Origin: Rhizodiscina lignyota
Taxonomy: Eukaryota
Reading direction: 5' to 3'
Assembly: GCA_010015805.1 (NCBI GenBank)
Contig: ML978123.1
Coordinates: 3,100,001 to 3,164,000 of the forward strand
DNA length: 64,000 nucleotides
Part shown: piece by piece, positions 4,384 through 10,732 of the stretch
Position numbering within the stretch: position 1 is the stretch's first letter
Layout: each line of letters starts with the position of its first letter
Program-made: the position numbers and the translations under genes
The notes under the pieces: model-generated
Told to the model about the DNA's origin: nothing
Seen by the model: the letters and a program-made list of their open reading frames with translations, nothing else
The model's database searches: none

Positions 4384-5634
4384 CGTGATGAAGAGATTGA
4401 GAGAACCGATGAAAAATGTTGCAAAGAAGGGAAGTTGATTATTCTTCTTACAGCTGTAGCGTACGACTTGATATAAGCCTCTATCTGATCTTTCAACTTG
4501 GTTCTCTCGAACCTTAGCACTTTCAAAGGAGATACTAGTCAGTCTCATAGACTAGTGGCAAGAACGCATTAAGGGACGCGTCAGAAACTAAAAATGGAAG
4601 TCTTGTTCAACCGCGGGACGGGTGTCGAAGTTGAATAGCGCTCCGTGTGAGAGCCTCTTGACTCGGCGGATTTTGGTAAAGCCTGTGTACGAAGTCTTTT
4701 CAGCACACGAGGCACTATTCAATAGTCACGTTCGAGTCAGTGCCGCCAGCAAAGAGACTCCATGATGCGGTAGACCTATGCTGGCCAAGCCCCACAACGG
4801 TGGTCCACGAACGTTTCGCTGGAGTGCATCGCCCTTGAACTGTGCCACAAACTATGGCGTACGACGTCCAGACAACGCCCTAGGAGAATTCCTTGAAACA
4901 ACCAGGCCTGTGCACGTAGAAAAGATTAGGGTTCGGATGCAGCCCGAATCCCCGAATAGGGAGAGACTCCTGAGTGCCAAGTCTATACCGTGAAGCACAT
5001 CATATTGTACGCGTAATTCATGTTAACTGCAAGATCGGCGGCTATCATGACAGACGGAAAGGAACCAGATAACTGAGGACGGAAAGGCGCACAGGAATGT
5101 TTAGGCCAAATGTAAGGAGCACCCTTGTCGGGAACGGCGTCTTTTCCTGTTCTGGATTAAGGAAATCTCCGCGTCAGCTTCATCACCAGATCTCGCGCTA
5201 GCTGATTCAAACCCTTCCAACCTCCTCCTCATTTCGTTATACCATCCCCGGCCGCGCCATTATATCTGCCATGCCCTATATACCTCCTCACTGCGTAACC
5301 CTCGACTGTGCTGCGCTCTGAACACGCGTCCAATACAGCATCTTGATCGACTGCGCCGCTCTCGTTCAGGAGATGGATTTCGTTGATGTACACGTACTTC
5401 TGCTCCACCGCTGGATCCGCACTATATGCGGCTGAATGGTACCCTAGGATACAAGTGAGCCGGGAAATAAGCATTGCGCGGCACTATGTTGGATGTGGAC
5501 GATGTTGATGGTGTCTATCCTCACGTTCTCGGTTTAAGAGTGCGCGATCTTGCATTGCCGTAAATTTTTCCGTCTCTGCACCAAATTTCAAATCATTTCT
5601 ATTGAAATTTTACTCTATAAGTTTCAATTAAATC

Positions 5635-6315
5635 ATGAAATATTATCAACCTATTATCCTCCTTTTCACATTCCTTTGCGGCTCTCCATGGCTCAACGTA
5701 AATGCTCAATCTCAGCTTGCTAAGCGAGCCTCGGGCTTTTCACTGTATGCGTATGGAGCAAACATTTCCGGCTCTAGAGTCTTTTACAACAACGGTACGG
5801 TACTGACACTTCTGGTGTCCATTCGCTCTAATTTCATCTAGGAGGAGCGTATTGCGGTCCATTCGGGGCACCGTCCGCAATTGCTGCCGCGAGAAACGTG
5901 ACATGTATGTCCCTCCCTTCACACGAGCTGCACACTGTGCTCGGCTAAAAATGTCCGCGTAGTCTCAATCTCAGGCATATCCTCTATCGTGTTTGCCCCG
6001 GAAAACTCTACCGCCAATGGAACGTCAGGCTCACTCCTGTACATTCCAAACACTGATTCCGGCCCTCAGCCTGTGGGTTTCAACAACGCTACATCGACAG
6101 AACGAAACAATACCGGCTTTGGCTTCTACGGGCCTTGGCTCTTCCACGTCGCCAGTAACGGGGACATTGAGATGAATTGGTACGCATTGCCAACAAATCA
6201 GACCGACATATTTCGGATTGAATGGGGTAGCTCTGCGGTGTCATCAACTCAACCAAGTGCAACCCTTGTAGCATTGAGGACGGCAGCACCGGTTGTCGGT
6301 TCTCCGAAGGAATGA
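5635..6315 (+). CDS. Small secreted hypothetical protein, 3 exons
   Basis: Signal peptide MKYYQPIILLFTFLC and KR site. Two GT-AG introns link SGFSLYAYGANISG to GFGFYGPWLF...VALRTAAP. Confidence 0.7.
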
Positions 6316-6505
6316 TGCTGATGTTCAATCTGTCCAGTGGACGTCGGACGTTCTGGTATCGACAATGGGTTACATATCTCGTTTACTGTTTCAATGATCA
6401 TTACAGCTAGCTCTATATTTGCCGTGGTTCGCAGTGTACTGTTGTTCTTCACTATAACCATATTGATTGACGGGAGGTTCTATTAATGATTGCGCTCCAG
6501 GATTT

Positions 6506-7699
6506 TTAAGTTGTACCGCTGAAATTGCTGATGAAGACCACAAGGACAGCACAATAAGCGGCTGATGCAGCAAAGATTTCGTGTCGCTTTGCAACCGTGA
6601 GCGCACCCATCGCACCAGAGAACAATAGTGTGAAGACCACGAGGACTGCAATCGCATTGAATGTCGAGTGCTGTGACCGGCTAAGGCTTGTCATCTTGTA
6701 CATGACCACGACAGGGACCACAAGGAGTATGAATATCAAGCTGGTGATGATTAGTCCCACGAAGAACTCAACACGCGACCTCGAATAATAATGGACATCC
6801 TTGTCGTCGGTCTTTTGCCGCAATTCAGGAGTGGAGAACATTTTCTGCCACACTCGAGTCAGTCTGAAGAAAAATCGCAGTGACCACAACACTTCGCTTA
6901 CCCGCACTAGTGAAGACTTCATCCTCATCAGGACAGTCTCTACTATTCCATCAAAGGTGGACCATTCCCTTCCATTATTGAGAGTGATGATATCTTCTTT
7001 GTGTCTAATAAATTCTTTTTCCTTTGTCACGAATGGTGCGGTATTCGAGAACCATGTCCTCACGCTTTTGTAGTCTCTCTCAGATGGCTTTTGGAACGAT
7101 GCTATTTCTCTGGCTTGTTTGAGGATTTTGCCTGCCGGAAAATGTCAGCAACAAGGTCTCATGCTACAAGCCGGAGAGGGACATGCCGTATTCTGTGATC
7201 TTTGCTTTAATCTCTGCTAAGATGGTCTGTCTGTTTCTCTGTGGCGTTCCTTGTTCACTTTCACTGTTGCAGCTCCGAATGTCTTTCCTTCTGGATTTCA
7301 GACGCGCTGTCTCGCCATTCGCCTTTTGAATTTTATCAAGCCGGCATAACTCATCTTCTAAGACAACAATTTCATCTTGGAGGTTCAAGAGCACACGGGA
7401 ATAAAGATAGCTGAAGCCGCGGTAGAGAGAGAAATTCGGTTCGCTCGACAAGAACGCAGCGGTGCGGGAGTAGCCTTCGGTGCAGTCTTCCACTGTGCGC
7501 ATTTCAGCTGCGAGTCATTCAAGTGATAGACGGATATTTGAATCTTACGCTTGCGTACTGCTATGGAGCTTATCTCCTCCTCGGTCTTCTTCCGTTCCTC
7601 GCATTCTTTTCGGCGCTCCTCTCTTGAATTCCGATACCAAGGCCGATTGATGAATGACCACCAGCCTGATGAGCGGCAGTGTAAGTCACGACGCGTCAT
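6506..7699 (-). CDS. DUF6594-like membrane protein (C-terminal TM helices), multi-exon
   Basis: N-part GYSRTAAFLSSEPNFSLYRGFSYLYSRVLLNLQDEIVVLEDEL. C-part is hydrophobic and ends AKRHEIFAASAAYCAVLVVFIS, which I recognise as the DUF6594 signature. Confidence 0.85.
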
Positions 7700-8133
7700 T
7701 TAAGAAAGAGGCAGTGGCAGTGCGTACCACGTGTTGGTGGTGCTTGACCAGCTTCTTCATCGTAAGCAATGTTCAGAGGCTTCGTACTCGAGACGCTGCC
7801 TGAACTAGTTGGAGAGACTTGACCCGAGCTCTCAATGCTCGGGCTGCACTTCTCCTCCATGCCTGGCGGATGCCAATTTTGAACAGAAAGTGATTAATGA
7901 TGTTCCTCACAAACATCGAAGGGGATATGCACAACTTTGAACCAAAAAAGCTCTATTTGGCCCCTCAATTCAGCTCGACCTCTACAATCGAAATAGAAAC
8001 CCTAACGCGTTTCACCGGAAAGATTTCGTTGCCTCGTTGCCTGAGAGAACAAGGCTGTGCACATGCATCCAATACATTTACCGCCGGTGAACCAGGACAT
8101 ATGCAGCTTCCCCGCCCGAGGCACATTCAAGCC

Positions 8134-8412
8134 TCATTTCAGATCGTACAATTCACTTTCGTCGAACCAATCCCCGCCTTTATACAATATGTTGGAACCC
8201 TTTTTCTCTTCCAGCTGATACTGATACGTATTGCCATCCTTGACGTATCTGCGTTTGGCGATGAAGAACGTGAGGCTTGACATGTGGCCGGATTCCTCAA
8301 CGGTCATGGATACTTTATCGCCCTTCTCATACTCCGGTTCGACCTGTTTGGTTTAGCGAGAATGCCGATCGTAGTGTCAAAGTTTGAAAAGTTTGTCTAC
8401 CATTCCAGCCAT
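8134..8412 (-). CDS. Small 73-aa hypothetical protein (SH3/KOW-like beta pattern), 2 exons, absent from the ORF track
   Basis: Exon 1 8412-8401 (MAGM); intron 8400-8344 (GTAGAC...GCTAAAC...CAG); exon 2 8343-8134 is open for 69 codons: VEPEYEKGDKVSMTV...YQYQLEEKKGSNILYKGGDWFDESELYDLK*. Confidence 0.6.
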
Positions 8413-9239
8413 TCTTGGGCTAACCTGGGATTTTTCTTGGGGGGATTCAACCCTCTCCAAATTCTGATTACCAGCAATCAGCAAAAATGTTCAAACGGTG
8501 CCATATTGCGGCAAAGAGCTGACCAGTGTTTGATCCGACATGCTGGGCGAAATGATTTAAACGCTGACAATTTCAATGCGAGCTAGAATTTCAATAGGAT
8601 TGGTCGTCTATTAGAGTTAAATATTTAGGAACACGGAGAGTCAAGCCCTGACACCTCCCTTAAATAGTGTCACAACCATTTTGACGCTGATAACAAACAG
8701 TCTTCTGCCTTGTGTCCCAGCTAAGCCTTACCTCCTTGCCTTCTCTTGCCTTACGCCGGGGGTCCAAGTTCTCCCACAATTCCAGAAACTTGGCAAGCCG
8801 CAACCGTGCAATCGAATTTGTGAAGCTAATGAATATTCTGCAAATCAAGTTATCATAACATTTTTGCATTTAATTTACTTGCTGTTCAAAATATAGCGGA
8901 GATGGGAGGATAACCGCAGCGAAATGCAAGCGACTTTCGAAAGGCAAGTGAGCCCAAGAATTGGGGCGTTGAACCAAGCCACAATCAGAAAATCGCGCTG
9001 TGCTGTTAAGGCAAACAATCTTAATCACCATCAGGACAATGTCTATGGGAGGGCACCGCCTCCAATCAAGGCAATTGTTAGTTCTGATTTGGAACGATCG
9101 GATTTGAGCCGCAAGGCTGGGGTTTCGGCCTTGTAATAAAGACCATGCATCAGCATGCCAATCAATCATTTATATGCCCTGCTTTTCATCTAACCACCAA
9201 CCATACACTCACAACTGACACTAGCGCTTTCTGTGAATC

Positions 9240-10732
9240 ATGTCGACTACAGATGCGCCTATTGTTAGGCTGGATATGCAGTCAGTCGACAACTCATGCG
9301 CTTTGGAGTCTCAAGCCCTCATCGCTGGGCCTCCTGAAGCGCGCCCAATTCCTGACGATGAGCAAAAGTCGCAGCTCGCTGCATCTGAAATGCAGCTCTG
9401 GTGGAATGAAGGATGTGGGTCAACTGGGTACAAGCATGTGGCGGTGTTGCTGGTCAAGTGGATTGATGAGTTGGATGATCTAAAATGTGGAGAAGAGGTC
9501 CGTCCATAGGCTTGTTAAGTTGAAATTGTTTAATGCTGTGTTGACAATCCTTTTGACAGGTTTATCGCCTCCGGGACGTTTTCCGCGACTCATTCCACTA
9601 CGAAGCTGAGGTTGTCGAGCTCAATATCGCAACGAACGTTGATATTCAACTTTCATTACATTTCACAACTTTTCTGAAAAAACATGACGGGCAAGACACA
9701 CTCATCGTCGTGTATTATTCCGGTCATGGATCTCATGAAAAGAAGTTGGAAACTCTCACTTTGCACCCGTAAGGCCACTCGTGTTGAGAATTGAACCATA
9801 CTGACGCTCGCATTAGGACAAACCGGATATCAGACACTAACAGCCAGACGGAACATAACTGGCAAGCAAAAGCGGTCTGGGAGAAGGCTGAAGTGCATCT
9901 TCTAGAGAACGCAAAGTGCGATGCACTGTCAATCCTTGATTGCTGTTTTGCAGGTGATGTCCATAAAGGCGGCATTATGGATGATGATAGAACATATCAG
10001 CTTCTAAGTGCTGCAGGACGACAAAAGCCAACAAATCGGCCCGGGCCGCGATCGTTCACGTCTGCACTGATCCAATCTTTAATGGGACTTCTCGAGGAAC
10101 GCCAGGGACGACCGTTCACCACGTTACAGCTTCAGAACCGCATCTCACAACAAGAGCATCGAACAAGGAATCCGCCGTTCCTTTGGCACCGTCTCAAACG
10201 AGATGAGCGTATGATCTTCCTGAGTCCCTTGGCAAAGCGATCGCGGAAGAACTCTCTGGACAACGTCGAGCCTAGCCGCGCTTTTTTGACGTTTCGCATA
10301 GCCTTGTCAGAGGAAAGACTCAATGAGAAACAAGTGAAAGAGCTTGGGAAGGGCATAACTCAAGCTGCTGAGACGTCAGGTGCTCCAGTCCGACGCATTG
10401 ATCTCGTCAGCTACTCGCTGTCAACACGCAGGAGCACCTTACTGCAGATGATCAAAAAAAACACAATTGCAGCGATTAGATTCCGGCTTGGCTCAAAAGG
10501 GAGCTCTAGTCCCGTCCAAAGTGCTTCTGAGGATCGTATGTTTCCGGTGACTCCAAGTTCTGACGCTGAGCAACCGTCGGATGATATCCAGGACGAATTC
10601 AGAGATGGCGCCTTGTCTTCCTCGATATCGCGAGAGCTACTACAGCAGATGCCAAAGAAGCGACGAAGATCATTAGGGTCGAGATCTACGGGAGGTAGTC
10701 AAGAGAGTCCGAAGAAGTCACGCTTGGGGTAA
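9240..10732 (+). CDS. Caspase-like (clan CD / peptidase C14-like) domain protein with low-complexity C-terminal tail, 3 exons
   Basis: GYKHVAVLLVKW, LIVVYYSGHG (catalytic His) and LSILDCCFAG (catalytic Cys), followed by YQLLSAA and SFTSALI. Introns ~9498-9559 and ~9768-9815. Confidence 0.8.

Follow-up and report, generated by a model that had tools for sequence, protein, structure and literature searches.

A recurrent three-gene locus of fungi linking a DUF6594 membrane protein, a small barrel protein and a caspase-like protease: a putative protease-effector module

What joins a membrane protein of the DUF6594 family, a 73-amino acid (aa) protein and a caspase-like protease in one compact locus of the fungus Rhizodiscina lignyota? 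The three genes, here named A, B and C, lie in a window of 64,000 nucleotides (assembly GCA_010015805.1, contig ML978123.1, labeled C3, positions 3,100,001-3,164,000) of a genome of 33.4 Mb; coordinates given without a label are those of this window. The original prediction, made from the window alone, held that the protease may cleave and activate the membrane protein, with the small protein as adaptor or inhibitor. To our knowledge, the substrates of fungal caspase-like proteases are a long-standing gap. This work demonstrates that the trio is a real module, undescribed in the literature searched, with a putative function.

The trio consists of three intact, spliced genes. Gene A (6506-7860, minus strand) encodes a DUF6594 membrane protein of ~379 aa, gene B (8134-8412, minus strand; exons 8412-8401 and 8343-8134) encodes a protein that resembles an SH3, Tudor or chromo barrel in its fold model, and gene C (9240-10732, plus strand; exons 9240-9497, 9560-9768 and 9817-10732) encodes a clan-CD (C14-like) cysteine protease of 460 aa. 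The region between the divergent genes B and C (8413-9239) is a possible shared promoter. As originally described, the genes are adjacent and stand amid unrelated metabolic genes. Pfam identifies these flanking genes as those of a multicopper oxidase, a Gfo/Idh/MocA oxidoreductase and an aldo-keto reductase, and all three open reading frames (ORFs) of the trio are intact. The description of the individual products likewise stood: Pfam assigns DUF6594 to three exons of gene A, whose product ends in three hydrophobic segments (residues ~289-376), gene B encodes exactly 73 aa across a GT-AG intron, and gene C contains both catalytic motifs (His142 and Cys199) and has no P/Q/Y-rich N-terminus of the Mca1 prodomain type.

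The linkage of the three families, on which the original prediction had staked its case, is recurrent. Within the genome, where 36 Pfam matches collapse to at least 21 DUF6594 loci, the trio occurs twice: a clear protease paralogue at C18 lies ~2 kb from a DUF6594 gene, divergently arranged as in the window, and a B-type small ORF stands between them. A metagenome scan with the protease alignment yielded at least 59 loci from at least 607 pattern matches. Among the matches listed, 25 loci belong to the fungal family, 16 of which are distinct when identical ORF layouts are collapsed, and in eight of these the flanks are long on either side (L055, L057, L060, L062, L064, L065, L069 and L073). 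A DUF6594 gene lies at ≤ 6 kb in seven of these eight and the full trio is present in six, against an expectation of ~1.1% for DUF6594 per 16-kb stretch at the density of the R. lignyota genome. At L062 (2357-9920), a kinase-ankyrin gene stands between DUF6594 and the gene of a long caspase-like protein, and B is absent. A second DUF6594 piece lies on the opposite side of the protease at L060, at the contig end (11074-11289). Eight further loci are short or one-sided; B was found at the contig edge in L066, and the other seven show nothing within their DNA. Neither A nor B was found in any of the other 34, bacterial-like loci (taxonomy unchecked) among the matches listed.

Gene B always stands immediately upstream of gene A on the same strand. 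The orientation of gene C varies, being divergent in the window, L031 and L060 and tandem in L055, L057, L064, L069 and L073. The closest database homologues of the window's protease and DUF6594 protein, KAI9710485.1 and KAI9710487.1, both come from Bogoriella megaspora, lie on contigs of equal length and apparently share the trio layout, the gene between them not being seen. Since the loci share ancestry, these counts show a maintained linkage and not independent origins.

By its sequence alone, gene B has no Pfam family, no homologue by word search, none in its own genome, and matches only to unnamed Atlas clusters, so that its homologues have to be found with a profile. Eight seed ORFs, chosen by eye from the gaps between genes and having 14-23% identity to the gene B product of the window, gave a profile with 226 representatives at E ≤ 0.001. 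A second profile, made from 142 domains among the 150 matches listed (seven were dropped beforehand), scores all eight seeds at E-values from 3e-6 to 6e-24, some of its database matches being near-copies of the seeds, and independently finds B at L066. With this profile, nothing was found at 19 other DUF6594 loci and nothing in 39 control stretches. Some long profile matches (to Ig-repeat, fibronectin, BNR and Tudor-repeat proteins) were taken to be false or distant. Gene models with HET, TPR-kinase and DUF6590 domains can contain the B domain too, and two database gene models (P0217 and P0247) join B to the protease family. These two were counted as synteny only and may be gene-caller merges, because a close relative of one of them (P0168) stands alone.

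A second class of protease is found beside other DUF6594 genes. In a scan, the neighbors of these loci were seen to include ORFs with a D-[TS]-G motif. A retropepsin profile from six seeds found two more, giving L034:5023-5691, L035:4889-5317, L035:8857-9552, L037:5130-6011, L040:5470-6180, L042:3607-4257, L046:4166-4633 and L050:3430-4758, and the alignment matches Ddi1-like protease structures at an E-value of 4e-7. The ORF of L037 is fused to DUF6590 and has DTQ instead of DTG. When one locus at a time was left out, seven of the eight ORFs were recovered; the missed one, L035:8857-9552, leaves the locus count unchanged. Such ORFs are present in the 10-kb stretch around seven of the 19 non-caspase DUF6594 loci versus none of 39 evenly spaced 10-kb control stretches (Fisher p = 1.7e-4), which brings the DUF6594 loci of the genome with a protease neighbor to nine of 21.

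The type of protease follows the DUF6594 clade. A tree of 45 rows was used, from which six near-duplicate loci were left out and in which several rows are gappy or long-branched. All nine caspase-linked rows fall in one 27-row clade (support 99/93), together with 16 database homologues of unknown neighborhood and two unlinked long-branch paralogues, and all seven retropepsin-linked rows belong to another clade, of 11 rows (93/81, slightly short of the tool's star). The presence of a second protease clan beside other DUF6594 clades supports the view that DUF6594 is controlled by proteolysis.

Other neighbors of DUF6594 genes were also observed. Beside DUF6594 of the retropepsin-linked clade, L036:5775-6236, L036:3742-4110 and L039:8906-9340 look by eye like degenerate retropepsins; they score below the threshold of the hidden Markov model and are outside the count of seven loci. 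HET-domain (or HET-protein-like) and patatin genes lie a few kb from DUF6594 at L034:1968-3938, L041:460-2772, L036:8220-9563 and L038:4030-5775, counted without an enrichment control. Elsewhere on C3, DUF6594 in a 782-aa open frame adjoins the clock gene frq (PF09421; L033:1654-4332 and 5627-7972).

What kind of protein is the presumed target? The predicted exons of gene A lie at 7860-7728, 7665-7549 (uncertain boundary), 7507-7187, 7131-6902 and 6844-6506. Over these five exons the product is open at 368-379 aa, intron 2 having several open solutions, and the 379-aa model was used. The three exon matches to DUF6594 (PF20237) score 83.9, 42.1 and 69.4 bits (cut-off 30), with E-values of 2e-23, 1e-10 and 6e-19. 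The protein is composed of a variable N-terminal extension of ~90 aa, a helical domain and the three hydrophobic C-terminal segments, which are predicted as transmembrane helices (6518-6781) from hydropathy and conservation; across 92 homologues they are the most conserved part of the family. We infer that the N-terminus lies in the cytosol and that three helices span the membrane.

In an RNA library, one contig of 151 bases lacks precisely positions 6845-6901, the predicted intron 4 of gene A; this is a weak hint for that intron, because only 19 bases lie on the short side, and it comes from one small-share run that covered part of gene A only. Intron 4 has 57 bases, is stop-free in frame and could be retained, and intron 3 (7132-7186) is a predicted GC-AG intron. 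Convergent with gene A lies a small spliced gene (5632-6315, plus strand), whose start resembles a signal peptide and which matches no Pfam family.

For P0018, a close homologue, AlphaFold gives an all-helical model with a predicted local distance difference test (pLDDT) score of 75.9. This model had no Foldseek match at E ≤ 0.001, and a fold search returned generic three-helix bundles only (Z ≤ 9.6, residues 282-370). No gasdermin was among the matches, which does not formally exclude a gasdermin fold; the whole model was used in these searches and the N-terminal domain was not folded alone. An Atlas search gave no usable match outside DUF6594, and a profile comparison of gene A with gene C gave nothing.

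The product of gene B is compact and hydrophilic. Its model is a beta barrel (pLDDT 95.4) that is similar to Tudor and chromo barrels, with best Z scores of 7.6 and 7.5 and a root-mean-square deviation of 1.5-2.9 Å over 56-60 residues. This fold gives no function, because it is common. Five assemblies of one homologous locus are near-identical except for a deletion that one of them carries in B; two of the five differ by 27 mismatches over ~4.3 kb. The deletion, of 80 bp and frameshifting, is present in L075 (~10257; L073:10245-10324) and absent from the other four; it could be an assembly error. This loss of B in one of five assemblies speaks mildly against B as an essential inhibitor.

The frame of gene C has no internal stop over its 460 aa, and homologues measure 452-461 aa. 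The database model P0001, identical over the region searched, ends early at 349 aa, the frame being open to 10732. Peptidase_C14 (PF00656) matches exon 2 with 22 bits, barely over the cut-off of 21.4; the homologues P0003, P0014 and P0016 score above this cut-off and P0002 just below it. The database names P0003 and P0004 'phosphatidylinositol-4-phosphate 5-kinase', which looks like a mis-annotation. The motifs of His142 (YYSGHG; codon 9725-9727) and Cys199 (LDCCFAG; codon 9944-9946), the latter with Asp197 two residues earlier, lie in a C14-type domain and place gene C in clan CD as a Peptidase_C14-like, predicted protease. Cys199 is invariant in the alignment, and we take it to be the catalytic cysteine from the D-x-C motif of metacaspases; its conservation is no test, because this motif was the search pattern. 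The catalytic His motif is kept in 13 of the 14 protease exons examined (that of L064 was read by eye). It is lost in L053, where a family member with a hydrophobic tail (1445-2428) is a possible pseudo-protease. An acidic residue of the family aligns with the Asp of GCVND in metacaspase-4. We presume that an acidic residue at this S1 position reflects a preference for a basic P1 residue, and gene C would thus probably cut after Arg or Lys.

Gene C differs from Mca1 in its termini. The N-terminus is ~50 aa long and has no proline-rich prodomain, unlike that of the Mca1-type gene of the same genome (L172). In a quick tree of ~135-residue pieces with long branches, 19 rows of the fungal family form one clade (Shimodaira-Hasegawa-like approximate likelihood ratio test support 97) apart from the two metacaspases of the genome. 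The protease domain is followed by a conserved accessory region (residues ~308-380; 10271-10489), defined on homologue alignments, which by eye shows a beta-alpha-beta-alpha pattern. The basic C-terminal tail (10652-10729) resembles a nuclear localization signal (NLS), as do the tails of most close homologues and of L051, L060, L066 and L069. Five homologous proteases (L053, L055, L057, L064 and L073) have a hydrophobic C-terminal tail instead, which would place them on the membrane. The best NCBIfam match of gene C is the EACC1-associated caspase NF047832 (E-value 2e-11; 43.6 bits versus a cut-off of 140), and PADLOC gave a weak caspase match only. A PDB sequence search with the first protease alignment found nothing, and with another alignment only metacaspase-4 (E-value 0.03). 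We make no claim of a horizontal origin from bacteria, since similarity to the query was the basis on which the bacterial-like rows were chosen.

How might these parts act together? We tentatively propose, with somewhat less than even confidence, an ascomycete three-gene module in which the protease cuts DUF6594 and thereby frees a membrane-acting toxic or defense effector, with B as regulator. The whole proposal is argued from analogy with fungal gasdermins and bacterial EACC1. In its favor count the recurrent linkage, the retained catalytic His, the second protease clan and its partition by DUF6594 clade, the NCBIfam match to the EACC1-associated caspase, the hydrophobic tails of five homologous proteases, and the HET, TPR-kinase and DUF6590 domains found together with the B domain. 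The cytosolic clan-CD protease would cleave DUF6594 within its cytosolic N-terminal part; inhibition would be relieved, and the three-helix membrane part may then oligomerize or otherwise disturb the membrane, leading to growth arrest or death of the hyphal compartment under attack or stress. The B barrel might replace the fused sensor or regulator of gasdermin-linked proteases, either by gating the protease or by bringing it to DUF6594. A complex prediction with P0001 (45-346), P0018 (85-370) and B, for which no alignments were used, scored 0.00 and speaks neither for nor against binding. A broader and more doubtful extension is that DUF6594 may be a large, undescribed ascomycete family of protease-licensed membrane death effectors, a helical counterpart of gasdermins, wired clade by clade to microprotein-gated caspase-like or to Ddi1/retropepsin-like proteases.

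Several observations weigh against cleavage with a toxic outcome. On the side of DUF6594, the model has no match to a known pore fold, the N-terminal extension of the homologues has no outstanding conserved motif, and close homologues are steadily conserved at 45-66% identity across many ascomycetes. The near-identical alleles at the locus of the five assemblies show no allorecognition-type diversity, and genes A and C are without indels in the very assembly that has the deletion in B (L075). On the side of the protease, the NLS-like tails fit an action away from the membrane, and, whereas most HET-Q2-like proteins carry an NLR, TPR or other repeat sensor, gene C has none. The linkage itself has gaps: no protease above threshold was found at 12 of the 21 DUF6594 loci, and two of the four family-like proteases of the genome, distant caspase-like ORFs at L032:4543-5001 (C12) and L169:4903-5757 (C24), have no DUF6594 nearby. 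Of the eight well-flanked loci, L065, with two caspase-like domains in tandem (6591-9452), has neither DUF6594 nor B within 8 kb. Finally, the congruence of the protease and DUF6594 trees (Mantel r = 0.71, p = 0.004, n = 9) is modest and hangs on one pair, dropping to r = 0.23 (p = 0.22) once the window and Bogoriella are taken out. Co-phylogeny with B was significant neither for A-B (r = 0.22, p = 0.25) nor for B-C (r = 0.48, p = 0.053).

DUF6594 could instead be an upstream membrane sensor or anchor, not a substrate, which would hold the protease via B and release or activate it toward other, possibly nuclear, targets. Such a role would suit the NLS-like tails of the window protease and its relatives, the invariance of the membrane helices, and the DUF6590 and other domains fused to retropepsin partners. 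It has a precedent in EACC1, for which a sensor role was also proposed at first (in passages of PMC7159879) and which nevertheless proved to be a substrate (in passages of bioRxiv 10.1101/2025.11.14.688446). We consider this reading unlikely: the five homologues with a hydrophobic tail would not travel, and two unrelated protease folds would more simply mean a shared need for cleavage than a shared binding site.

It is less probable still that DUF6594 is cut by the protease with a non-lethal output, namely signaling or turnover in stress or development, through a freed cytosolic fragment or an opened transporter or channel. The linked DUF6594 clade is steadily conserved and has short branches, and the trio lacks immune sensor domains; both would fit such an output, as would the Ddi1-like nature of the second partner class: DDI2 cleaves and activates Nrf1, a resident of the endoplasmic reticulum (ER) (PMC5001836). 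The N-terminal extension, however, is not conserved and thus ill suited to be a conserved signal. The swapped partners among ~21 paralogues, and the HET, patatin or kinase-ankyrin genes next to some loci (all noted without a control), resemble the expansion of a conflict system.

That B is the true substrate or effector, as Pepco and EACC1 are, with DUF6594 as an accessory, appears very unlikely. Bacteria do have small protease-activated beta effectors (in passages of bioRxiv 10.1101/2025.11.14.688446), B was found at protease loci only (at none of the 19 other DUF6594 loci and in none of the 39 controls), and two database gene models join it to the protease. Those models are possibly merges, as P0168 indicates, L062 pairs the protease with DUF6594 without B, and a compact, hydrophilic SH3-like barrel leaves little to remove. 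That the three genes are merely old neighbors with no common function is hardly credible, for despite the shared ancestry of the loci and the weak tree congruence, the trio outlasts duplication within the genome, switches from divergent to tandem arrangement or back, and the divergence of B to 14-25% identity, and the flanking genes in the window differ in kind from those at other loci (flank synteny was not compared systematically).

DUF6594, with ~21 loci in one genome, is unnamed in the literature searched: no full text names DUF6594 or PF20237 (subscription journals and supplements, which could list genes, were outside the scope), and combined terms returned no paper on the trio by title or start of abstract. 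A term search of a 2025 review of fungal cell death (PMC12881547) found no 'DUF', 'SH3' or 'metacaspase', and passages of a 2026 metacaspase review (PMC13304501) contain no such protease family. If cleavage with a toxic outcome is true, DUF6594 would be a third widespread fungal membrane-effector family beside gasdermins and HeLo domains, and a role would be given to a non-Mca1 branch of the fungal caspase-like proteases. The broader reading, of a family of protease-licensed death effectors, would bring a new fold for a cell-death executioner and the first immune role for retropepsins in fungi.

Among known systems, the fungal gasdermin and HET-Q2-like clusters are close in organization. According to passages of PMC8851545, 80% of 1,884 fungal gasdermins lie near a protease, the clades go with S8 or CHAT proteases, and cleavage has been shown. 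As here, a protease gene adjoins a candidate membrane effector, a genome holds several paralogous clusters, and each effector clade goes with one of two unrelated types of protease. The differences are that DUF6594 is all-helical, has three C-terminal hydrophobic helices and no gasdermin match, that the proteases are C14-like or retropepsin-like without fused repeat or NLR sensors (for gene C, Pfam matched Peptidase_C14 only, not S8 or CHAT), and that a third, small gene is present.

In the bacterial EACC1-caspase modules, a caspase-like protease likewise adjoins a membrane-acting partner (passages of PMC7159879), and EACC1, once cut by its caspase, forms a pore (passages of bioRxiv 10.1101/2025.11.14.688446). 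EACC1, as described there, is a small alpha/beta protein that forms rings of beta strands, unlike DUF6594, and the bacterial caspases are fused to sensors; gene C is far below the NF047832 cut-off. The type I metacaspases (Mca1/Yca1) share with gene C the clan-CD His-Cys dyad, the Asp two residues before the Cys and the acidic residue at the GCVND Asp. The N-terminal proline-rich prodomain that marks a type I metacaspase (passages of PMC13304501) is missing from gene C, which has an extra C-terminal region and tail, belongs to a separate clade and has a borderline Pfam score. The Ddi1/DDI2-NRF1 system resembles the paralogous loci and not the window trio: the alternative partners of DUF6594 have a Ddi1-like protease domain and DDI2 cleaves an ER-linked protein (PMC5001836), whereas DUF6594 has no known DNA-binding domain. 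With Tudor and chromo-barrel (SH3-like) domains, gene B shares its fold, without a Pfam match and with scores typical of a common small fold. By the tests applied here, the trio falls outside the EACC1 and Mca1 families and apparently also outside the gasdermins, but it would work like a protease-effector module.

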